Shown here one piece after another: positions 4,840 through 52,552 of a DNA stretch of 64,000 nucleotides. The DNA is taken from positions 6,019 through 70,018 of the forward strand of contig JBAZVG010000001.1 in NCBI GenBank assembly GCA_041661005.1. The letters run 5' to 3'. The notes under the pieces are model-generated. The model was not told the origin of the DNA. It searched no databases and was given only the letters and a program-made list of their open reading frames with translations. The position numbers were made by a program, and so were the translations under genes. Numbering within the stretch: position 1 is the stretch's first letter; every line of letters starts with the position of its first letter. This DNA is from Minisyncoccota bacterium. Its GTDB lineage: Bacteria > Patescibacteriota > Minisyncoccia > Phycocordibacterales > UBA9973.

Positions 4840-6438
4840 ATGAAAAATTCCCCTTTAATTTACGGACTCCAAAGACCCAACGATAAACCTGATTTGATTT
4901 TAGTTAATTCACCAATAAGAGATTATACAGATGAAGAGAGACAGGAAACAGAACAATTACCAGCAATAGGCTTAGGATACATTGCAACTGTGTGTGAAAA
5001 AGCAGGTTTCAATGTTGGTTTGCTGGATGTAGAGGTTAATGGTTTGTCACCAGAAAAAGCAGCTGAAATAATTAATGAATCAAACCCTAGATGGGTTGGT
5101 GTTAATATGCTCACGCCAACTTTTCCTTTAGCTAAAAGAATTATTGCAAATATAAATAAGGGTATTCAAATTGAAGTTGGTGCTGCACATTCAAAAGCAT
5201 TATCAGAAAAAATATTAAGAGATTCAGAAATAGGTCACAAAATTGATTTAATCGTGCTTGAAGACGGTGAATTAATATCAAAAGGACTTCTTGAGGGAAA
5301 GAATCCCAGCGAAATGGGTGGGGTTGCTTATATAGACAAGTCTTCTGGTCAATATATTGAACACAGAGGAGACCCAGAAGGAAAATGGATTCCTAAAGAT
5401 TTAGATGCCTTACCATACTTGAATAGAAAATTTTTTAAAAATGGAATAATCAAATCGGAAGGAAGATTGGAAGCAAATATTGTAGGATCTCGAGGATGTC
5501 CTTTTTCTTGTCCATTTTGTGCTGGTGCAAAAGAAATGTTGATATTTGGGATTCGACAACGATCCATAGAAAATATTGTACAGGAAATAAAAAATCTAAA
5601 AGAACAAGGAGTAACGGCGATTAGATTTATTGATGATTTATTTTTATCAAGTCCAGCTCGCATAAAGCAATTTTTTAAACTAATGACTGAAGCAGGATTA
5701 AATGAACACGTTGTATGGGATGCAACAGGTAGAGCTAATATATTATCAAAACTAGACAAAGAAACATTAGAATTGATGGCGCGTAGTGGTGCTAGAGAAA
5801 TATCAATAGGCGTAGAGTCGGGATCACAAAGAATGCTCGATCTTATGAATAAAGGAATTAAACCAGAAATGGTAAGAAGCGCTATAGTAAATTTGGCATC
5901 TGTAGGAATACGCACAAAAACATATTTTATGTTGGGTATTCCTTCTGAAACGGAAGAAGAAGCGAAAGAGTCCGTAGCATTTATGCACGAATTACGTAAT
6001 CTTGCCAGAAAGACTGTTGCTGAGAATCCATTAACTCCAACAGGTAAACAGAATGAGGCTCAAAGTAGAGGAAGTATGTTTATTTTTCGACCATATCCAG
6101 GAACCCCTTTTAGTGAGCAGTTACAGGGTAAAAAAGAGTGGCCAGAAGGAACATGGAAAAATTCAGAACAACCATTATTTACAGAAGAAGAGATACTTGA
6201 GAGTTTTCATCCAACAACAATAAAACCTGGATTAGAAGTAAGACAAAAACATAGTTTCAGTACAACATTGCAATTGGGACCCTTGGAACCATCAAAAATA
6301 CAAGAAATGGTAGATGGTGCCATGCTCGCACAAAAGGAAGATATGGTTATACACGGGGAGTATTTGCCAGGCATAAAAGAAATAAAAGCTGAAAATAATG
6401 GAATAAATAAAACAGGAATGCCGTGGCGTATTGCTTAA
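4840..6438 (+). CDS. Cobalamin-binding-domain radical SAM enzyme (class B radical SAM)
   Basis: 532 aa. The N-terminal ~130 aa form a B12-binding-like Rossmann segment (LILVNSP...IGLGYIA...VGVNMLT). The CX3CX2C cluster is GSRGCPFSCPFCAG, and a TIM-barrel radical SAM core follows. Confidence 0.75.
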   Translation: MKNSPLIYGLQRPNDKPDLILVNSPIRDYTDEERQETEQLPAIGLGYIATVCEKAGFNVGLLDVEVNGLSPEKAAEIINESNPRWVGVNMLTPTFPLAKRIIANINKGIQIEVGAAHSKALSEKILRDSEIGHKIDLIVLEDGELISKGLLEGKNPSEMGGVAYIDKSSGQYIEHRGDPEGKWIPKDLDALPYLNRKFFKNGIIKSEGRLEANIVGSRGCPFSCPFCAGAKEMLIFGIRQRSIENIVQEIKNLKEQGVTAIRFIDDLFLSSPARIKQFFKLMTEAGLNEHVVWDATGRANILSKLDKETLELMARSGAREISIGVESGSQRMLDLMNKGIKPEMVRSAIVNLASVGIRTKTYFMLGIPSETEEEAKESVAFMHELRNLARKTVAENPLTPTGKQNEAQSRGSMFIFRPYPGTPFSEQLQGKKEWPEGTWKNSEQPLFTEEEILESFHPTTIKPGLEVRQKHSFSTTLQLGPLEPSKIQEMVDGAMLAQKEDMVIHGEYLPGIKEIKAENNGINKTGMPWRIA

Positions 6439-6466
6439 AATAATTTAATACATTTATATTAAAAAT

Positions 6467-7210
6467 ATGATTGAAGAAAAAGAGATAAAAATAAAAGTTG
6501 ATAAAAATATATTTGATGAGGCTAAAAAATATATTAAAGAACATACAAAACTGACAAAAACAAAATTTCAAATTGACGAATATTTTGATACAGAATTGTT
6601 TATGTTTACAAATTTAAATAGAGGAATTAGAGTTCGATATAATGATAAAATTCCTGAATCAGTAGAGTTTAAATCTTTATTTTGGAATAAATATGGTAAT
6701 CCTAATAATCCTTGGTATATTGAAGAGATAGGATTAAAAATACCGCTAGATACTGAAAGTAAAATAACTTTTCGTGCGATCTTAAAAAGATTTAATTTAT
6801 CATTAAATATACCTGAAGATATTGATGTTGACTATCAGTTATTCAAAGATTTATTAAACAAAATTGGATTATCTCCAAGAATTATTGTAACTAAAGAAAG
6901 AGAGGAATATGAAAATGATGAATCTACGTTTGTTTTTGATTATATAAAAGAACTTGGTTATTTTATTGAAATAGAAACAAAAGGTATTGATCCAATGGAT
7001 ATATTAAAAACAATACCTGTAATTAGTGATTATAGTGTTGTTCGAAATGGGTATAATGATATGGTTGGTGAAAATATTCCAAATTTAATATCAAATGATA
7101 TAAGGCAACAACTCTTTCGTTTAAATCATTCATGGAATATTCTAGAAACAGAAGTAGATATCGTAAATCAATTATTAAAAGAATATAAAGAAGTATGTCA
7201 AACCCAATAG
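6467..7210 (+). CDS. CYTH-domain protein (triphosphate tunnel metalloenzyme / class IV adenylyl cyclase-like)
   Basis: N-terminal EKEIKIKV (EiE-K motif), IRVRYND (R-x-R motif), C-terminal GYFIEIETKG (ExE motif). Its 3' end overlaps cmk by 16 nt. Confidence 0.55.
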   Translation: MIEEKEIKIKVDKNIFDEAKKYIKEHTKLTKTKFQIDEYFDTELFMFTNLNRGIRVRYNDKIPESVEFKSLFWNKYGNPNNPWYIEEIGLKIPLDTESKITFRAILKRFNLSLNIPEDIDVDYQLFKDLLNKIGLSPRIIVTKEREEYENDESTFVFDYIKELGYFIEIETKGIDPMDILKTIPVISDYSVVRNGYNDMVGENIPNLISNDIRQQLFRLNHSWNILETEVDIVNQLLKEYKEVCQTQ

Positions 7211-11411: not shown

Positions 11412-11573
11412 TAGAATGTAATGGAAGCGAAAGTAATTTTTAAAATGCAATCTATCTAGCAAAGCTTTGCTAGCGAACTACTCGTCAATCAAGAAAATAA
11501 TAAATAGAGTACTATTTTTATTTTCTAATTTCCTGTGCAAGGCATTTTAAAAACTCTTTCGTTTCCATTTAAC

Positions 11574-12242
11574 ATGATTTATTTCAACAATGTTTCAAAA
11601 GCTTATAGAGATGGGTTAGCATTAGACGATGTTACTTTTACAATCGTCGCTGGAGAGTTTGTCTCTATTGTCGGACATTCAGGCGCTGGCAAGACGACTC
11701 TCACTAAAATGATTTTAGCAGATGAAAATCCTTCAGGTGGGACAGTTTTTTTTGAATCCATCAATGTGCATAAATTAAAAAGCAAAGACTTGACCAAGCT
11801 CCGTAGGCGCATCGGAGTGGTATTTCAAGATTTCAAATTATTGCCAAATAAAACCGCTTACGAAAATATCGCTTTTGCGATGGAAGCAGTCGGCAAGACT
11901 GACGAGGAAATAGCCTCTGATGTTCCACATGTTTTAGAATTAGTTGATTTAAGCCATCGTCTTTTTCACTTTCCAAATCAAATGTCTGGAGGCGAACAGC
12001 AGAGGCTCGCTATCGCTCGCGCTATTATCAATCAGCCCGAGCTTATCATCGCCGATGAGCCGACGGGGAATTTGGATCCGATAAATACGCATGAAATAGT
12101 GCAAATTTTAAAAAAAATAAATGATTTGGGCACTACGGTGATCTTAGCCACCCACAATCGCGGAGTGATCGATTCGATCGGCAAGAGAGTTATTACAATG
12201 GAAAATGGCAAAGTTATTCGAGATACGAAGAATGGGAAATGA
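11574..12242 (+). CDS. ftsE: Cell-division ABC ATPase FtsE
   Basis: Walker A GHSGAGKTTL, ABC signature LSGGEQQRLAIARAI, Walker B LIIADEPTGNLD; followed by ftsX. The ORF track opens at 11535; Met at 11574 (MIYFNNVSKAY) is chosen as the start. Confidence 0.8.
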   Translation: MIYFNNVSKAYRDGLALDDVTFTIVAGEFVSIVGHSGAGKTTLTKMILADENPSGGTVFFESINVHKLKSKDLTKLRRRIGVVFQDFKLLPNKTAYENIAFAMEAVGKTDEEIASDVPHVLELVDLSHRLFHFPNQMSGGEQQRLAIARAIINQPELIIADEPTGNLDPINTHEIVQILKKINDLGTTVILATHNRGVIDSIGKRVITMENGKVIRDTKNGK

Positions 12243-12252
12243 ATGATATAAT

Positions 12253-12339
12253 AGACGTGGAATGACTTTTTATCAGGTCCTCGGTTCTCTGGGGCCCCGC
12301 GCCCCAGCCAGACCGTTCTAAAAAGTCATTCCACGTCTA
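12253..12339. repeat. Palindromic element: 19-bp perfect inverted repeats (tagacgtggaatgactttt / aaaagtcattccacgtcta) flanking a 48-nt GC-rich core; fills the ftsE-ftsX spacer
   Basis: Read directly. The core tcaggtcctcggttctctggggccccgcgccccagccagaccgttc is ~90% identical to the core at 51798..51843. Confidence 0.6.
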
Positions 12340-12349
12340 TTAAAATAAC

Positions 12350-13267
12350 ATGACAGAATTAAAAAGAATTATCAAAGCTGGATTTATAAACTTTACCCGA
12401 GGTGGGTTGGTCTCTTTTGCAGCCGTTTTAGTGGTTACGATTACTCTTTCTGTTGTCACTTCCATTATTTTGTTGCAGGCGGTGCTGTATTCTTCACTCA
12501 GCACCATAAAAGACAAAGTGGATGTCGCGATTTATTTTACTGTAGATGCGCCCGAAAACAGGATTATGCTCTTGAAAGAATCTCTCTTGAAACTGCCAGA
12601 AGTGGCAAGCGTTTCCTATACCAGTAGTGAAGAAGCGTTAAGGCTTTTCCGCGCTCGCCATGAAAACGATTACCCGACAATCGCTGCTCTCGACGAGATA
12701 GGTAGCAATCCGCTTGGCGCTTATTTGAATGTCAAAGCGCGGGAGATTTCTCAATATGAAAGTATCGCGAATTTCATGAAAGGGGACAATGCTTTGGTTT
12801 TAGGCTCAGCCAATATCATAGATAAAGTAAATTATTATAAAAATAAGTTAGTGATAGACCGACTGAACTCCATAATATCTGGCGCGCAGAAGCTCGGATT
12901 CCTTGTTACGTTGATTTTAGTAATTATTTCTATTATTATCACTTTCAACACAATCCGGCTGACTATTTTTATCGCTAAAGAAGAAATCGGTGTCATGCGT
13001 CTTGTGGGAGCTTCTAAAATGCGCGTTCAGGGGCCTTTCATGATTGAAGGAGCAATTTATGGCGTTATCGCTACCATCATAACACTAGTCATCTTTTTGC
13101 CGATTACTGCATGGCTCGGGCGCAATATGACGAATTTTTTAGGGTTTGATGTTTACAACTACTACATTTCAAATTTCTTTCAAATTTTTGCAATTATTTT
13201 ATTATCAGGTATACTCTTTGGAGTGATTTCAAGTTTCTTGGCGGTCAGAAGATATTTGGATAAGTAA
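12350..13267 (+). CDS. ftsX: Cell-division permease-like protein FtsX
   Basis: 305 aa with one N-terminal TM, a large extracytoplasmic loop and three C-terminal TMs. Immediately downstream of ftsE. Confidence 0.75.
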   Translation: MTELKRIIKAGFINFTRGGLVSFAAVLVVTITLSVVTSIILLQAVLYSSLSTIKDKVDVAIYFTVDAPENRIMLLKESLLKLPEVASVSYTSSEEALRLFRARHENDYPTIAALDEIGSNPLGAYLNVKAREISQYESIANFMKGDNALVLGSANIIDKVNYYKNKLVIDRLNSIISGAQKLGFLVTLILVIISIIITFNTIRLTIFIAKEEIGVMRLVGASKMRVQGPFMIEGAIYGVIATIITLVIFLPITAWLGRNMTNFLGFDVYNYYISNFFQIFAIILLSGILFGVISSFLAVRRYLDK

Positions 13268-18676: not shown

Positions 18677-19077
18677 GGGGATGCAAGGCATAGACAGTTG
18701 GACTTTTGTCATTGATGCATACTGAGAATGGACGTAATCTCGTAAAAATTCGTCCAATAGCTTAATTGCAAAATTAGCTTCCAAAGTGAAAGCGGCAGTC
18801 TCTCCATACTTCGGTATGAATGACTTTGCTTTCGCTTCAGTTTCCGCTTCGGCGTAACTGATGTCTCTCTTATAGACTTCCGATATATAAGGGCAGGCAC
18901 AATATTATCGGGATAGGAGAAAGACTGTTCTGACTTTCTTTCGAAACAAAGGAACTCGATTAAAAAATATTTGGCTCGTTTAAGAATTTTTTAATTTAAA
19001 CAAAAAAGCGCGCTATGTATGTAGACTTCTTTACAAAAACCTTCTGCACGGGGATTCGATTTCCCCCATCTCCACCA
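18677..19077 (+). ncRNA. ssrA: tmRNA (ssrA), one-piece, CCA encoded
   Basis: 5' ggggatg pairs with 3' catctcc, including a G3:U70 wobble (the Ala identity element). T-arm gggga-ttcgatt-tcccc, then A-CCA. An internal ORF ...NDFAFASVSASA-TAA is a plausible tag. Located 137 nt downstream of smpB. Confidence 0.75.
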
Positions 19078-21666: not shown

Positions 21667-22039
21667 ATATATTCCCTTAGCATATACTTGCTTCAGCGTC
21701 TTTCCTTTGTTGGAATGACGTTTTAATTTCCGCCAGGGGCGGATAAATAACTCTCTTTGACAATAGAATGAATTATTGAGAACAGGTGCAAGTCTGTTCT
21801 GTTTTTTTGAGTAAGCCCCGACGTAAAGTCGGGGTCCCGACCCTGAAATTTAATTTAGGCGTCGGGATAGAAATAATTTTTAGAGCAAAAGATTGAACTC
21901 TAACAAGTAACAAAAATAATACTGAGGAGCGCAAGCGACGGATGTACTGTTTTTTGTTTTGTTTCGTTCCTAAATCAAAATGCTTTGCATTTTGATCGGA
22001 CGATCCGCCTTTGGCGGATTTAGTCTGTAACTTTTATTT

Positions 22040-23590
<1,551 letters not shown>

Positions 23591-23874
23591 TTGAAAACTG
23601 TCCCAATTTTTATTTATAAAAATTGAGGATCCCGCCATAGGCGGGATCCTGGTCTCGCCCCGCGAGACTGGACTAATTGAGTCGGTATTGTGTCGCTCAA
23701 TTGACGACACAATAGTCTAAGTATGTTGTGGACTTAAAGAAACATATTGACAGAGAGGAAAGACTCTTAAGTTAAAAAGAACGAAACAAAACAAAGAACA
23801 GTTCACCCCGCCATGGCGGGGCAAGCAAACAAAAATACCTCGCGCAAGCGGGGTATTTTTGTTATAATTTTATT

Positions 23875-26172: not shown

Positions 26173-26420
26173 GTACATTATAAAAATTTTAGAGTCCGAA
26201 TATTTTTCTGCTGAAAAATTTCTCAAGACTCGCGCCGTCGCGCTCCGTAGCCTCTAAAATCTTTACAATGTACTCAAACTTGAATTTGACTTATCCACAG
26301 TTTTGTTTAAAAAAGTATTGTTTTACATTTTAATAAGGAACATAATTAAAGTGTTTTCGCAATAGAAATTTAAGGTCGTCTTTTATTGCAAACTATTTAG
26401 AAAATTAATTTATAAATACT

Positions 26421-34365: not shown

Positions 34366-34713
34366 CAAAATTTAGGAAAATTCTTTCTTGATATAGTTTT
34401 ATCTAGACACGACATAATTTTCTGCTGAAAATTTGCTATGCTCGGCTCGACAGCCTGCGCAATGTCTATCTAAAACTACACCTGCAACAAATTTTCCTAA
34501 ATTTTACTATTTTTAACCTTATTTGTCAATATGCCTATGTCAAAATATCCTTATTTTATAAGGTTTTTTCTGTTTGACATACTGTGAAAGTATTGTATAA
34601 CTATTGACATTTAAACCGGATTATGCTATCATTAAAGTGTATCCTTATTATATAGGCCAGATGACTTATCTGCCTTATTAAATAAGGGTTTTTTAGTTTT
34701 TAGCCCAAATTAT

Positions 34714-37641: not shown

Positions 37642-40113
37642 ATGAAAAAATCTTTAGAGACAAAAGAAGACGCAGGCGGTGTAGACAAAATTCTTCCAGT
37701 TGATGTCGTGACTGAAATGAAAGAGTCGTATTTGGCATACGCGATGTCTGTCATCACATCTCGCGCCTTGCCTGACGTCAGGGACGGATTGAAGCCGGTG
37801 CATCGCAGAATTTTGTTCGCCATGCATGAGATGGGACTCACCTCTTCCGCGCGTTTTAGGAAATCAGCCGCAGTTGTCGGAGATGTGCTTGGTAAATACC
37901 ATCCGCATGGAGATGTCGCAGTTTATGATTCGATGGTGGGCATGGCGCAAGAATTTTCTTATCGTTATCCGTTTATTTTGGGGCAGGGGAACTTCGGTTC
38001 CATTGATGGAGACAATGCCGCCGCTATGCGTTACACCGAGGCAAAAATGTCTAAAATATCGGGAGAACTTCTGAGAGATTTAGAAAAAGAAACAGTTGAT
38101 TTTCGCCCCAATTACGATCAGACCCGCAAAGAGCCGATAGTCTTTCCTTCTTCTGTGCCGGCGTTACTTTTGAACGGCACCTTGGGCATCGCTGTCGGTA
38201 TGGCTACGAATATCCCTCCACATAATTTGGCTGAAGTTTTGGATGCTACTAATCTTTTAATTGAAAATGAAGATGCTACGACAGAGGATTTGATGCAGTT
38301 TATAAAAGGTCCAGATTTTCCCACTGGGGGAATAATCTATGGATACAAAGACATGCTCCACGCTTACTCAGGAGGACGAGGTGGTGTCGTGACGAGAGGT
38401 GAAGCGGAAATAGTCGAACAAAAAGATGGTAATTTCTCCATTATCATAACTTCGATTCCTTTTCGAGTAAATAAATCAAATTTGATAATGGCGATAGCGG
38501 AGCTGGTGCAGGAAAAAAAGTTGGAAGGTATAAAAGGGCTTCGCGATGAATCAACCAAAGACATCAGGGTTGTGATCGATCTGAAAAGCAGCGCGCATCC
38601 TGAAAAAGTTTTAAATTATATTTACAAAAATACCCAGCTTGAATCAAATTTTAATTTCAATATTGTGGCGTTGGTGGATGGAGTTCCTCAGACCTTGTCA
38701 CTTAAATCAATTCTCGAGCAGTTTGTTTTACACAGAAAGGAGATTGTAAAAAGAAGAAGCGCTTACGATCTAAAAAGGGCCGAAGAGCGCGAGCATATCT
38801 TGCTTGGTCTCAAAAAAGCGTTGGACAAGATAGATCGTGTGATAACCGTGATCCGTGGATCCAAAAATTCTCAAATCGCAAAATTTAATTTAATGAAAGA
38901 ATTCAAGTTTTCTGATTTGCAGGCGACGGCAATTCTCGAAATGAAGCTGTCAAAATTGGCCGGGTTAGAGAGGCAAGCAGTAGAGGACGAACTCAAAGAA
39001 AAACAGAAATTTATTGCAGAGATGAAAGATCTCTTGGCAAGTCCAAAGAAAATTCTAAAGACAATTGCTACGGAATTAAAAGAAATTCGCGAGAAGTATG
39101 CCGACGAGAGAAGGACAAAGATAGTGAAGGGTGGAGTCAAAGAAATTTCTGACGAAGATTTAGTGCCAGAAAAAGAAACAATGCTTGTTTTGACGGCTGG
39201 CGGATATGTAAAATGCACTGATCCTTCTGAATATCACGCGCAAAAGCGGGGTGGAGTCGGAGTGGTTGACCTTGAAACCAAAGAAGAAGATTTTGTGACG
39301 ATGCTCGTATCCGGTTCTACTCACAGCAATCTACTTTTCTTTACAAATCTCGGCAAAGTTTATCAAATGAAAATGTATGATATTCCCGAAGGTCGCAGGG
39401 CGACTCGCGGTAAATCGATTATGAACTTTTTAGCGCTAGGAGGAGAGGAAAAAGTAACTTCGATTCTTGCAATGCCGAAAGATTTAACTAAAACTTCTTC
39501 TTCACTTATGCTGGTTACCAAGAATGGCACAGCAAAAAAAATGTCTTCAGAAAGTTTCAAAGATGTGCGCCGAAGTGGAATTATTGCCATTCGTTTAGAT
39601 AAAGATGATCAGCTTGTTTCTGCTCTTTCTATAGAAAAAGGAGATGAGGTTATGATCGCGACAGCTGAAGGTCAATCAATCAGATTTAAAGAATCTGATA
39701 TCAGAGAGATGGGTAGGACGGCAGGAGGTGTGCGTGGAATAAAACTAAGCAAAAATGATGCAGTTATTGGTGTGGATGTTATAAAAAATAATCAACAAAA
39801 AGAAAAAAGATCTGGGGCATTTTTGACCATGAGCGCAAATGGGTTTGGAAAGAAGACCGATCTGAAAGAATATAAAGTTCAAAAACGCGGCGGTTCCGGT
39901 GTGAAAACCGCGAAAGTTACTACAAAAACAGGCAAGCTCATTGTTGCGAAAGTTTTGACTGGCGAGGAAGAAGAATTGATTGCCATGTCCAAAAAAGGTC
40001 AGGTCATCCGAACAGCTTTAAAAGATATTTCATCCCTTGGCAGACAAACACAAGGTGTGACAATTATGCGTCTCCGCGCCGGCGATGGCATTGCATCGCT
40101 TGCGTGTATCTGA
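37642..40113 (+). CDS. gyrA: DNA gyrase subunit A
   Basis: [28 protein letters not shown] with the active-site Tyr region, and C-terminal beta-pinwheel repeats. No gyrB lies adjacent. Confidence 0.9.
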
Positions 40114-40227
40114 TTCTCCTCTTGAGGAGTACTCCGACCTAGGTCGGAGGGAGGTGGATGAATTCTCCACCCCGTCTCGCAAGCGAGCCACCCCTCAAGA
40201 GGGGAATAAATATGGTATAATTAACTC

Positions 40228-40752
40228 ATGTTCACCGATCCAATAAAAAATCTAAAAGCTTTAGGATTGCGAGAAGATAATATTGTTGCTGATCTTGGCG
40301 CAGGGACAGGATTCTATTCTGTTGCCGCAGGTCATATAGTCCCCAAGGGAAAAGTTTATGCTGTTGAAATCGATAAGGACTTTTTGGCGACAATAAAGGA
40401 AAAAGTAAAAGAGGCTCGTCTCAACAACGTCGAGATTCTCTGGGGAGATATATCTAAAAATGGCGGGACTAATATAGGAAACAAGATTGTGGATGCGGTG
40501 ATTGCTTCCAACGTTCTTTTTCAAGTGGAAGATAAACACAGATTTATTGAAGAGATAAAAAGAATATTAAAACCGAGGGGTAGGGTGTTGTTGATTGATT
40601 GGGTGGAGTCTCCGATTGTGAATGCCAAGACTGTTGTTCCCAAAAACAAAGCTCGCGAGATGTTTGAAAAAAAAGGTTTTATCTGGCAACAGGATATTAA
40701 CACAGGGGCGTATCATTATGGTATGATATTTGGGTTGGGCTCTAAAGATTAG
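40228..40752 (+). CDS. Class I SAM-dependent methyltransferase
   Basis: VADLGAGTGFYS (motif I). Confidence 0.65.
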   Translation: MFTDPIKNLKALGLREDNIVADLGAGTGFYSVAAGHIVPKGKVYAVEIDKDFLATIKEKVKEARLNNVEILWGDISKNGGTNIGNKIVDAVIASNVLFQVEDKHRFIEEIKRILKPRGRVLLIDWVESPIVNAKTVVPKNKAREMFEKKGFIWQQDINTGAYHYGMIFGLGSKD

Positions 40753-44162: not shown

Positions 44163-44228
44163 CCCCGTAGTGAATTTTGGCGAGGCGCAAAGCGCAAGTT
44201 ATAAACATCGCCAAAATCTACTACGGGG
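44163..44228. repeat. REP-like long hairpin repeat, copy 1
   Basis: ccccgtagtgaattttggcga ... tcgccaaaatctactacgggg: a 21-bp stem with one G-U and one A-C mismatch that are conserved in all copies. Confidence 0.6.
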
Positions 44229-44256
44229 TTGCTTTGTTTTATTTATGTTTGTGGTA

Positions 44257-44334
44257 CCCCGTAGTGAATTTTGGCAACATGTTTTAGATTGGTTAGTTTT
44301 AAACAAACTAACCTTGCCAAAATCTACTACGGGG
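44257..44334. repeat. REP-like long hairpin repeat, copy 2 (different loop)
   Basis: ccccgtagtgaattttggcaa ... ttgccaaaatctactacgggg. Confidence 0.6.
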
Positions 44335-44386
44335 TGGTATTATTAAGGAATATTATTAATATTATTATTTAGAGTCGTAAAAAATT

Positions 44387-51158: not shown

Positions 51159-51183
51159 GTATAGATAATATATACCCGGTAGT

Positions 51184-51260
51184 GAGCTTTAGCAAGGCAC
51201 AAAGAAAGCATGCTCGCAGAGCGAGCGATTGCTAAAGTCTACTAACCGGGTATACTATTT
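51184..51260. repeat. REP-like long hairpin repeat, copy 3 (ends 3 nt before the cysteine desulfurase start codon)
   Basis: cccggtagtgagctttagcaaggcacaaag ... gctaaagtctactaaccggg. Confidence 0.6.
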
Positions 51261-51262
51261 CA

Positions 51263-52552
51263 ATGCCCAAATCAAATAAAGGCTCGACAGAAAAAACAAG
51301 AAAAATATATTTAGATTATGCGTCCAGTGTGGAATCCAATCCAAGTTCTATACACATGGAAGGGGTGCAAGCCAGAGTCAGGCTTCAAAATGCGCGTAGA
51401 GAAGTTGCAGGTGTGCTTGGCGCAAAATCGGAAGAAATAATCTTTACCAGTGGAGGCACTGAGAGCAACAATCTTGCAATTCAAGGTATGGTTTTGTCTT
51501 TGCAGGGAAAAATGTTGCCCCATATTATAACAACAAACATCGAACACCCGTCTGTTCTTGAAACCTTTAAACTTCTTGAAAAAAGAAAACTTGCGCAAAT
51601 TTCCATAGTGCCCGTAGAAGCGAACGGCATTGTGGATCCAAAAAAAATAAAAAAAGAAATTAAAAAAAATACGGTTCTTGTGTCTGTGATGTATGCCAAT
51701 AATGAAATTGGCACTATCCAGCCCATAAGAGAAATTGCAAAAGAGATCAGACATTTTAGAAAGCAAAAGGAAAAGAAGAAAGGTTTTCTCAGGTCCTCGG
51801 TTCCCTGGGTCCCTCCCCCAGCCAGACCATTCCAAAACCTTTCTTCTTTTCCTTTTTTTCATACCGACGCAGTGCAAGCAGGAAACTATCTAGATTTGAA
51901 TGTAGAGAGATTGGGAGTGGATTTGCTCTCGCTTTCTGGTTCGAAAATTTTTGGTGGGGGTAAAGTTGGAGTGCTTTATAAAAAAAAATCTGTGCCTCTT
52001 GCAAATATATTTGGCGGGGGAAATCAAGAAATGGGATTACGTCCGGGCACGGAAAATTTGCCGGAGATTTTAAAATTTTCCAAGGCGCTTCAATTTACAC
52101 AGAAAGTAAAAGAAAAAGAGGCAAAGAGATTAACTAAACTTCGGGATTATTTTATCGCTTCGCTTCATCAAATTTTTTCCTCCTGCGTCCTTCTCGGATT
52201 ACCGAGTGGGACCCTCGGAAATAAAAAATTCGATGAAGCTTCACTCTTTGTAAATGGTGATTTAAAAGATAGATTGCCGAATAATATAAATATTACTATT
52301 CCAAATATTCCAAGCGATCTTTTGGTCATTGAGCTTTCAGCAAAAGGAATAATGTGTTCATCAAAAAGCGCTTGTGAATCCGGCGATGGCAAAGCGTCAT
52401 ATGTTATTAAAGCAATAAATAAAAATATTTCAGAAGAGGACGGCTCTTTGCGGTTTTCATTAGGAAGAGATACCACAAAAGCAGATATTGATTATACTGT
52501 TAAAGCTTTATCACAAATTTTGACTAAATTAGAAAAGTGGTACACCCGGTAG
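51263..52552 (+). CDS. Cysteine desulfurase (class V aminotransferase, NifS/IscS-like) carrying an in-frame ~30-aa insertion derived from a palindromic repeat
   Basis: SGGTESNNLAIQG, HTDAVQAG, SLSGSKIFGG (the PLP-Lys region), and catalytic-loop Cys in SSKSACESG. The segment RKQKEKKKGFLRSSVPWVPPPARPFQNLSSFPF precedes the conserved FHTDAVQ motif, where no insert is expected. Confidence 0.75.
   Translation: MPKSNKGSTEKTRKIYLDYASSVESNPSSIHMEGVQARVRLQNARREVAGVLGAKSEEIIFTSGGTESNNLAIQGMVLSLQGKMLPHIITTNIEHPSVLETFKLLEKRKLAQISIVPVEANGIVDPKKIKKEIKKNTVLVSVMYANNEIGTIQPIREIAKEIRHFRKQKEKKKGFLRSSVPWVPPPARPFQNLSSFPFFHTDAVQAGNYLDLNVERLGVDLLSLSGSKIFGGGKVGVLYKKKSVPLANIFGGGNQEMGLRPGTENLPEILKFSKALQFTQKVKEKEAKRLTKLRDYFIASLHQIFSSCVLLGLPSGTLGNKKFDEASLFVNGDLKDRLPNNINITIPNIPSDLLVIELSAKGIMCSSKSACESGDGKASYVIKAINKNISEEDGSLRFSLGRDTTKADIDYTVKALSQILTKLEKWYTR
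51765..51855. repeat. Palindromic element inside the cysteine desulfurase CDS: 22-bp inverted repeats (aaaaggaaaagaagaaaggtttt / aaaacctttcttcttttcctttt) flanking a 45-nt core homologous to the 12271..12318 core
   Basis: Read directly. Core tcaggtcctcggttccctgggtccctccccagccagaccattc. The flanking IRs are unrelated to those of the 12253 copy. Confidence 0.6.

Follow-up and report, generated by a model that had tools for sequence, protein, structure and literature searches.

How can two hairpins in one genome share nearly the same loop when their stems, each perfectly paired, have nothing in common? The question is raised by a 64,000-nucleotide (nt) stretch of a Minisyncoccota bacterium (GenBank assembly GCA_041661005.1, contig JBAZVG010000001.1, positions 6,019 to 70,018; the whole stretch is called the window here). 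One such hairpin, copy A, fills the spacer between an ftsE-like and an ftsX-like gene, and another, copy B, lies in frame within a cysteine desulfurase gene. We consider it probable that both belong to a family of small selfish and non-autonomous elements in the DNA of Nomurabacteria and Paceibacterota, in the Candidate Phyla Radiation (CPR), a family similar to the Rickettsia palindromic elements (RPEs) and with a stem that is made from the target. The parts of the two copies are given below, with the names of the two fts-like genes taken from reading the sequence.

12249..12342, + strand: copy A, complete hairpin of 94 nt filling the ftsE-ftsX spacer; 24-bp perfect inverted repeat, 46-nt loop, folded
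12249..12272, no strand: copy A left arm, TAATAGACGTGGAATGACTTTTTA, site-specific, 100% complementary to 12319-12342
12273..12318, + strand: copy A conserved GC-rich core, TCA-GGTCC...GACC-GTTC, the 46-nt loop; G+C content 72-78%
12319..12342, no strand: copy A right arm, complement of the left arm
51765..51856, + strand: copy B, complete hairpin of 92 nt in frame within the cysteine desulfurase open reading frame (ORF); 23-bp perfect inverted repeat, 46-nt loop
51765..51787, + strand: copy B left arm, coding for the Lys-rich QKEKKKGF; the Lys-rich stretch is kept in orthologues with and without inserts
51788..51833, + strand: copy B conserved core, the 46-nt loop, translated as LRSSVPWVPPPARPF
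51834..51856, + strand: copy B right arm, translated as QNLSSFPF; it duplicates the left arm in inverted form
11535..12242, + strand: ftsE-like ABC ATPase gene, upstream of copy A
12350..13267, + strand: ftsX-like permease gene, downstream of copy A

Between the loops of copies A and B there are 5 substitutions and one 2-nt indel (~85-89% identity), while their arms have nothing in common; the left arm of copy A has no relative among the arms of the other copies described below. Each copy folds as a single long hairpin, at -55.5 kcal/mol for copy A (z -10.6) and -42.7 kcal/mol for copy B (z -7.3). The G+C content of the core is 67-78% compared to 32-42% for the window. Two halves of the core, of 21 nt and 17 nt, occur twice each in the 64 kb at no more than 3 mismatches, where shuffles gave expectations of 0.00 and 0.08 matches, and an unfiltered covariance model found copies A and B alone in the window (79 and 81 bits). 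Copy A lies in the interval from the stop of ftsE (12242) to the start of ftsX (12350), and no orthologous ftsE-ftsX spacer that could serve as its empty counterpart was present among the loci fetched for this study. The first-pass annotation of this DNA had located both copies correctly, copy B in frame, and had described their flanking inverted repeats as unrelated to each other yet perfectly complementary, which is confirmed in the window. Its repeat lengths were too short (19 bp for the 24 bp of copy A and 22 bp for the 23 bp of copy B), and the two cores, which it rightly regarded as related at about 90% identity with one indel, differ by an indel of 2 nt rather than 3 nt.

To look beyond the window, one genome per species (185,579 species) was scanned for the pattern GGTCCTCGGTTC-N5-35-CAGCCAGACC. 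The scan returned 79 loci, 77 of which are genuine further copies distributed over 48 assemblies. Loci of 8 kb from the related genomes (558 kb in total) were fetched and are cited by L numbers. All 48 assemblies are metagenome-assembled genomes of Nomurabacteria, Paceibacterota or unclassified Patescibacteria, a few of these labels being evidently loose, and the core could serve as a clade-specific marker, given that among 185,579 species representatives it was found in Nomurabacteria and Paceibacterota alone. The two other matches to the pattern, in Streptomyces and a myxobacterium, were rejected as chance occurrences in GC-rich DNA. A covariance model run on the fetched 558 kb added 4 diverged copies, i.e. 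~1 per 120 kb of flank, and this rate suggests a load of ~5-25 copies per genome.

The first-pass annotation had left room for a chance relation of the two cores, which is ruled out by the 77 further copies in 48 related assemblies. A layout of insert, loop and reverse complement is superficially similar to read-through of a hairpin adapter, and one might therefore suspect an assembly or adapter artefact, or chance similarity. We consider the likelihood of either to be negligible. No matches are expected by chance; the 48 assemblies are independent and come from many studies; only ~20 nt are duplicated before the host sequence resumes; and orthologous copies share inherited imperfections and preserve the reading frame.

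The core consensus is nTCA-GGTCCTCGGTTCyCTGGG...CCCAGCCAGACC-ATTCn, a GC-rich, self-folding sequence of ~46 nt. When all copies are anchored on the core, the conserved unit is (A)CTTTTT-n-TCA [GGTCC...GACC] ATTC-n-AAAAAG(T). The search pattern fixed 22 core positions and left the T-tract, the A-tract and the apical stem free, yet all three are conserved in 76 copies. In the flank profile only T(-8..-6) and A(+7..+9) are near-invariant, and the ends of the hairpins all differ. Beyond these tracts each copy has complementary arms of its own. Counted from 4 nt outside the core, the stem has a median length of 21 bp and a maximum of 30 bp, and the whole hairpin a median of 86 nt. Stem positions outside the tracts vary and do so jointly: paired stem cells amount to 93.8% (82.5% in shuffles), and 152 stem cells are altered on both sides (44 in shuffles). 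At 34 of 37 sites the arms have no detectable relatives. Local matches between arms of different sites scoring at least 14 number 5 (1 expected), nearly all of them from one subfamily.

These features bear on the possibility that the family is a classical mobile element comparable to MITEs (miniature transposable elements with inverted repeats) or RPEs, in which the whole ~90-nt hairpin is moved in trans by a transposase, the arms evolve fast and gene conversion keeps them paired. Arms that are unrelated at nearly all sites argue against this. There is also no consistent direct target-site duplication at the hairpin borders; direct repeats of at least 3 nt are found at the borders in 7 of 74 copies (~2 expected) and come from related copies. 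Neither does the flank profile contain a family-wide terminal inverted repeat beyond TTT/AAA. Other observations, which favor moving hairpins, are considered below.

The desulfurase gene provides a direct view of what an insertion adds, and it contains a second hairpin besides copy B.

51263..52552, + strand: cysteine desulfurase (Aminotran_5), 429 aa, host gene with two hairpin inserts
52162..52239, + strand: second hairpin insert in the same gene, with a different 44-nt GC-rich core, arms gcttcatcaaatttttt / aaaaaattcgatgaagc and a T-tract/A-tract beside the loop

Copy B leaves the ORF open (...KGFLRSSVPWVPPPARPFQNLSSFPF FHTDAVQ). Alignment of orthologues shows many that are empty at this position, e.g. 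RHYKKQNKIHDIFFHTD in L069, so the segment is indeed an insertion, as the first-pass annotation had supposed. Between RH and HTD there are 12 codons in empty alleles and 35 in the window. The gain of 23 codons, or 69 nt, equals the 46-nt loop plus one 23-nt arm, and it is an arm like the right arm of copy B that is missing from the empty orthologues. The left arm is probably native coding flank, by analogy with the clean pair L083/L082 described below. An in-frame insert just before FHTDAVQ had been recognized correctly, with its size given as about 30 codons, and the second insert at 52162-52239 had been overlooked.

The mapping onto a desulfurase structure that had been proposed as a check places the copy B insert opposite a short segment: in the alignment to the solved desulfurase 9wep_A, window residues 164-197 stand opposite 6 residues. 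An AF2/AlphaFold model of the window protein (mean pLDDT 80) renders both inserts as low-confidence coil; near copy B the model predicts a helix (H155-173) and a strand (E198-202) at the flanks, with confidence high to about residue 170. The second insert contributes ~20 extra residues (304-330). It has 17-bp arms with a single mismatch, and a T6/A6 tract adjoins its loop. In L049 and L069 this same protein site is occupied by the core shared by copies A and B, termed family 1 below. The window desulfurase forms a single-member cluster from a single contig in a collection of 15 billion proteins, and therefore an empty allele from the same species is not to be expected.

Where do the arms come from? 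Four comparisons of occupied and empty alleles of one gene address this question. Outside the site, the proteins of L083 (occupied) and L082 (empty) are 84.5% identical. The sequence of the empty allele is ...AAGAAAACAAGGAAGGTAAGTTTT|TATCTACC..., and the native sequence AAGAAAACAAGrAArGTAAGTTTT is found in both L082 and L083; after this flank L083 has 72 extra nt in total, made up of the 46-nt core followed by the flank's inverted copy of 25 nt. In a different core family, L087 and L086 both have the native AAAGAAGCACTTCTGCC on the right, and on the left L087 has 78 nt more, of which 17 nt are an inverted copy and 61 nt a core. In UvrC (L048 compared with L032), the left arm corresponds to the conserved LIKENS, and nothing equivalent to the right arm is present in the empty orthologue. 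In DNA polymerase I (Pol I), the arm for EKTLLSPIS is present in six orthologous copies (L036 group); L008 has it once, and the empty L055 has a related stretch, EKNVLLNVSSP, likewise once. As read from these aligned alleles, the comparisons show one arm to be the native flank and the other to be, by all appearances, a new inverted copy of that flank.

The first-pass annotation had offered two models, one of which was an element that generates palindromic target duplications. This model is supported by the absence of the second arm from empty alleles. Its account of the arms holds in the four comparisons and does not extend to one subfamily, which carries the same arms into four genes. The T-tract/A-tract beside the core is already present as native sequence in L082 and L086, both empty, and is therefore read as target preference or microhomology. 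Every copy adjoins such a tract, a run of 3-5 T's being a weak specificity in an AT-rich genome.

Two further approaches to arm origin were abandoned. The right arm of PheS (L021) was considered as native and dropped, the same arms being found in TsaD, IleRS and the CCA-adding enzyme. Net insertion length was considered as a test of one arm versus two arms; gains range from +12 to +34 aa, and with host linkers so variable from species to species this measure is unsuitable for general use.

Based on these comparisons we propose the following sequence of events. The ~46-nt core would land beside a host T-tract/A-tract. The core hairpin could then return its 3' end onto the flank just left, and ~20 nt of this flank would be copied by fold-back or template-switch synthesis. 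The finished copy, as seen in the alleles, consists of the core with the native flank on one side and a new inverted copy of 17-25 nt on the other, which makes each copy a perfect ~90-nt hairpin with a site-specific stem. The same process may later keep the arms matched, resulting in concerted evolution, and in one subfamily hairpins may also move whole, arms included. The surviving copies would be those in short intergenic spacers and those forming in-frame, stop-free inserts in tolerant surface loops of proteins, the latter presumably translated as loops of ~23-30 residues rich in Gly, Pro and Ser. Template switching is an established route by which quasi-palindromes become perfect palindromes (discussed in PMC6649704). 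A stem obtained from the target would point to hairpin-primed or template-switch synthesis and not to ordinary transposase chemistry.

The site of copy B is an insertion hot spot. Among 120 desulfurase orthologues many have no insert at this site and some have a decayed or shortened one. Family 1 occurs here in three + frames and in the - orientation, and at least 3 other cores are found besides it, so that four or more core families, in both orientations, have landed here. Inversion of the core between species was also seen at one site, in L074 relative to L033 and L066. In L085, the 3' part of a family-2 core and one arm remain. The hot spot of L081 (codons ~165-180 of the gene at 201-1448) has no core and contains a 13-bp perfect palindrome, GGAAAACATAGCT-TTAAAG-AGCTATGTTTTCC; the gene is 91.5% DNA-identical to that of L080, which bears a full element. 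The palindrome without a core could be an excision footprint or a palindrome that preceded insertion. Such a site may provide a system to study how a protein tolerates repeated insertion.

If palindromes preceded insertion generally, the core alone could be mobile and home into the loops of existing host palindromes, and the arms would never be made by the element. The coreless palindrome of L081 is consistent with this, as are the occurrence of several different cores at the same sites and the quasi-palindromic character of some empty sites (CAAAAGACA-N12-GTTCTTTTG in L055 and AAGGTA-N10-TACCTT in L082). The clean empty alleles L082 and L086, however, lack anything equivalent to the second arm of 17-25 nt, insertion sizes correspond to the core plus about one arm, and perfect 20-bp palindromes are not expected beforehand at ~25 coding sites. 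We regard homing into ready-made palindromes as improbable.

Orthologous copies allow the fate of the hairpins to be followed. A 1-nt bulge is shared within the Pol I group and within the IG3 group, and a fixed mismatch within IG1; these inherited imperfections indicate that many copies are old and vertically inherited. Within orthologous sets the mismatch of an arm to its own partner is 0.20, compared to 0.31 to the partner arm of an orthologous copy. At the CCA-enzyme site, left arms under protein constraint have diverged by 46% between species and the right arm tracks its own left arm (0.16). This tracking could result either from concerted evolution or from repeated re-insertion. The aligned loci also show copies that have decayed and been deleted, at times leaving partial remnants.

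The CCA-adding-enzyme site is unusual in another respect. L017 carries, at 6379-6542, a tandem pair of hairpin inserts within a single CCA-adding-enzyme gene. The first combines a decayed core with the arms of the shared-arm subfamily, and the second has a variant apex and arms of its own. In four other genomes the site contains just one family-1 copy.

How do the inserts affect their host genes? Forty-five of the 79 copies (57%) are located within ORFs, in agreement with the RPE-like in-frame location noted in the first-pass annotation, and the other 34 are located in short intergenic spacers. The intragenic copies represent ~25 independent sites, with 22 copies oriented along the gene and 23 opposite to it, and they are read in 4-5 frames (GPRFSGS.., QVLGSLGP.., RSSVLWVP.., GLAGVGDPENRGP and WSGWGRDPENRGP). 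All of them are open, stop-free and in frame. One expects such a universal pattern only where the inserts are translated and selection removes those that break the frame, and we infer that the inserts are translated rather than removed from the product. The host genes encode housekeeping enzymes, namely PheS, PheT, IleRS and GatA; DNA polymerase I, RecJ, UvrA, UvrB, UvrC and UvrD-type helicases; TsaD, MnmA, RsmA and the CCA-adding enzyme; and RNase R, SMC and the desulfurase. Conservation of these host genes suggests that the inserts are compatible with the function of the host proteins.

Mobile GC-rich inserts of mitochondria may resemble the element, and in two known cases, the byp elements of Magnusiomyces mitochondria and T4 gene 60, the ribosome skips the inserted sequence. 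A compact, stable hairpin within essential genes might similarly be absent from the protein here, either excised from the mRNA or bypassed by the ribosome. We find this very hard to reconcile with ~25 intragenic sites that are all in frame and stop-free in whichever of the 4-5 frames is read, and no pattern of take-off and landing codons is apparent.

Another possibility is a functional structured RNA or cis-regulatory hairpin involved in processing, stability or attenuation, whose loop is recognized and whose stem needs only to be paired. This was the first model of the first-pass annotation, a structured RNA with a co-varying stem. The fold is strong and conserved, arms remain paired in old orthologous copies, and intergenic copies are mostly co-directional with their neighbors: where both neighbors run in one direction, GGTCC lies on the strand of the genes at ~11 independent sites, compared to 2 sites where it lies on the other strand. 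Set against this are the equal orientations of intragenic copies (22 and 23), presence/absence and decay among close relatives, and the fact that one arm is merely host flank. In addition, mismatches on the transcribed strand are mostly A.C and not G.U, the window has no match in Rfam, and several unrelated cores have the same architecture. The data do not support the RNA model, and we give it little credence. At the gathering thresholds, Rfam 15 produced no match over the window; at permissive E-values it returned for the element hairpin models far below their cut-offs, mainly microRNA precursors, and for the flanks unrelated chance matches.

The stem mismatches show a pattern of their own. 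Non-Watson-Crick stem positions in all family-1 copies (L001-L079 and the window) are A.C on the GGTCC strand in 39 cases and G.T in 13. The A.C excess on this strand is independent of the direction of the host gene and of local GC skew, and the wobble-tolerant strand is the one reading GGTCTGGCTGGGG... Selection of the hairpin at the mRNA level, examined through G.U versus A.C, obtained no support, since A.C prevails on the GGTCC strand in either gene direction. A tie between element orientation and the replication strand was also considered and rejected, because GC skew tracks gene direction and not element direction.

Several observations weigh against a target-made stem as the explanation of the family. 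The inverted-copy step was not observed and no candidate enzyme was found. The strict search pattern favors well-preserved cores, and conservation of the core is thus partly a matter of ascertainment. Every empty/occupied pair comes from two different species (83-92% nt identity), where insertion and precise loss are distinguished by parsimony. The native arm may lie on either side of the core, and the orientation of the core relative to it is not fixed. Neither the strand bias of stem mismatches (39 A.C and 13 G.T) nor the orientation bias of intergenic copies (~11 and 2 sites) is predicted by the model. Neither arm is present in the empty orthologue of UvrA (L032), RecJ (L014) or the intergenic site IG2, which means either that the whole hairpin was inserted or that the linker differed beforehand; with both arms absent from the empty spacers, the IG2 comparison says nothing on arm origin. 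Finally, one subfamily has the same imperfect arms, GCC..ACCTGATGCTT.TGCTCA / ATTCGCAAAAGCA.ACAGG.TCGGCTAA, in PheS, TsaD, IleRS and the CCA-adding enzyme. Target-templated arms are therefore not the sole mode, and whole hairpins can move too.

The last two points, together with arms that evolve in concert, speak for transposition of whole hairpins in trans. In the four allele comparisons, however, one arm is host coding sequence conserved in the empty allele up to the core, and the unrelated arms and the lack of direct duplications and of longer terminal repeats described above also argue against it. We consider MITE- or RPE-like transposition unlikely as the general explanation, and selfish DNA with a stem made from the target remains our preferred one.

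Family 1 is not the only one of its kind in the window. Two intergenic hairpins share a different core.

26173..26273, + strand: intergenic hairpin with a core of a second family (..TATTTTTCTGCTGAAAAATTTCT..GCGCCGTCGCGC..) and its own arms
34394..34478, + strand: second intergenic copy of the second core family, with different arms

Their common core is ..TTTTCTGCTGAAAA..GCTCG.., and this second-family core, translated as ..HGYFSAEKFLVLAPSRS.., sits at the desulfurase hot spot of other genomes. With a second core family whose copies each have their own arms, the layout of conserved loop and site-specific stem is common to several unrelated cores. This raises the prospect of a new mode of mobility, in which several unrelated cores without terminal repeats would insert beside a T-tract and obtain a stem by fold-back copying of 17-25 nt of the target ("inverted target-site duplication"), the palindrome then being kept perfect by template switching. 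We put this forward tentatively, as a possibility and not as our expectation. If true, such mobility could be a general property of CPR bacteria with minimal repair or the property of one enzyme, and it would entail continuous remodelling of the surface loops of essential proteins.

How does the element compare to known systems? To our knowledge, there is essentially one textbook case of in-frame selfish DNA in bacterial housekeeping genes, the RPEs of Rickettsia. The element would be a second, independent case, located in the CPR. RPE-1 to RPE-10 (Ogata et al. 2000, 2002) are summarized in PMC10969869. Both RPEs and the element are short palindromic selfish repeats in the small AT-rich genome of a host-dependent bacterium; both are in frame and translated within unrelated housekeeping genes, tolerated at the protein surface and subject to decay. 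RPEs differ in that ~100-150 bp are conserved throughout, with one peptide per family, whereas in the element conservation is limited to ~46 nt and TTT/AAA. Descriptions of RPEs mention no inverted duplication of the flank, and their host belongs to another phylum; the likeness seen here is one of layout and behavior.

GC clusters of yeast mitochondria are ~30-50 nt long, occur in either orientation and are reported to be flanked by short direct duplications such as TAG. According to PMC4464245 (citing Hudspeth 1984, Butow 1985 and Weiller 1989), they include clusters in frame in VAR1/rps3. Like the element, they are GC-rich palindromes in an AT-rich genome, mostly intergenic with some in frame that alter protein size. 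They differ in their organellar eukaryotic host, and the element has 20-nt inverted copies; this comparison is by description and not by sequence. The "coding palindromes" of Nematomorpha mitochondria (PMC6649704) are perfect inverted repeats in translated genes, gained and lost between species, with arms held identical by an active process for which template switching was proposed. They have no conserved mobile core and both their arms encode conserved protein, whereas in the element the core nucleates the hairpin and one arm is extra.

Classical MITEs (Correia/CREE, ERIC, BOX and RUP) are likewise non-autonomous hairpins of ~100 nt that can form in-frame ORF fusions (PMC10969869). They have shared terminal inverted repeats and direct duplications produced by a cognate insertion-sequence transposase; both were tested in the element and are absent. 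REP/REPIN sequences with RAYT, and elements derived from IS200/IS605, are, like the element, small hairpin-forming repeats; they are inserted without direct duplication beside a short motif, plausibly through a chemistry on single-stranded DNA hairpins. REP/REPIN repeats have conserved arms, a variable loop and extragenic positions, whereas the element has a conserved loop, variable arms and 57% intragenic copies.

The insertion mode matches no described family found in the literature search, and full-text searches returned no description of the element in CPR bacteria. No copy was found in viral contigs, and the concatenated element peptides yielded no candidates in a protein database. Two cores flanking an ORF, which would be a sign of an autonomous relative, were found neither in the window nor in the 8-kb loci, and no RAYT or TnpA was seen in the 8% of the genome covered (64 kb of an 813-kb contig). 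These insertions explain part of the variation in protein length among CPR bacteria, where they form additional loops (20-35 residues) in PheRS, IleRS, Pol I, UvrABC, RecJ, TsaD, SMC and other proteins. For annotation and structure prediction, this would mean that Gly/Pro-rich loops can be scars of mobile elements.

The window contains a further repeat with the opposite layout to family 1. It is REP/REPIN-like, with conserved imperfect arms ACCCCGTAGTGAATTTTGGC / GCCAAAATCTACTACGGGGT and variable loops, contains GTAG and is present in three copies (44163-44228, 44256-44335 and 51175-51249), the third just upstream of the desulfurase start. At 40113-40207, a GC-rich (63%) multi-stem region within an 18-bp imperfect inverted repeat ends ~20 nt before an ATG at 40229; it has no match in Rfam and could be a leader or a riboswitch-like structure. 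A complete 16S rRNA gene is located at 22033-23591, with a tmRNA gene (18677-19077) 3 kb upstream. No 23S rRNA gene is found in the remaining 40 kb of the window, which indicates that the rRNA genes are unlinked. Among the fetched loci, an insertion of another kind was seen in IleRS of two Paceibacterota (L035, 2133-5753; L068, 1-2289), where a His_Phos_1 histidine-phosphatase domain lies inside the protein, between its catalytic and anticodon-binding parts.

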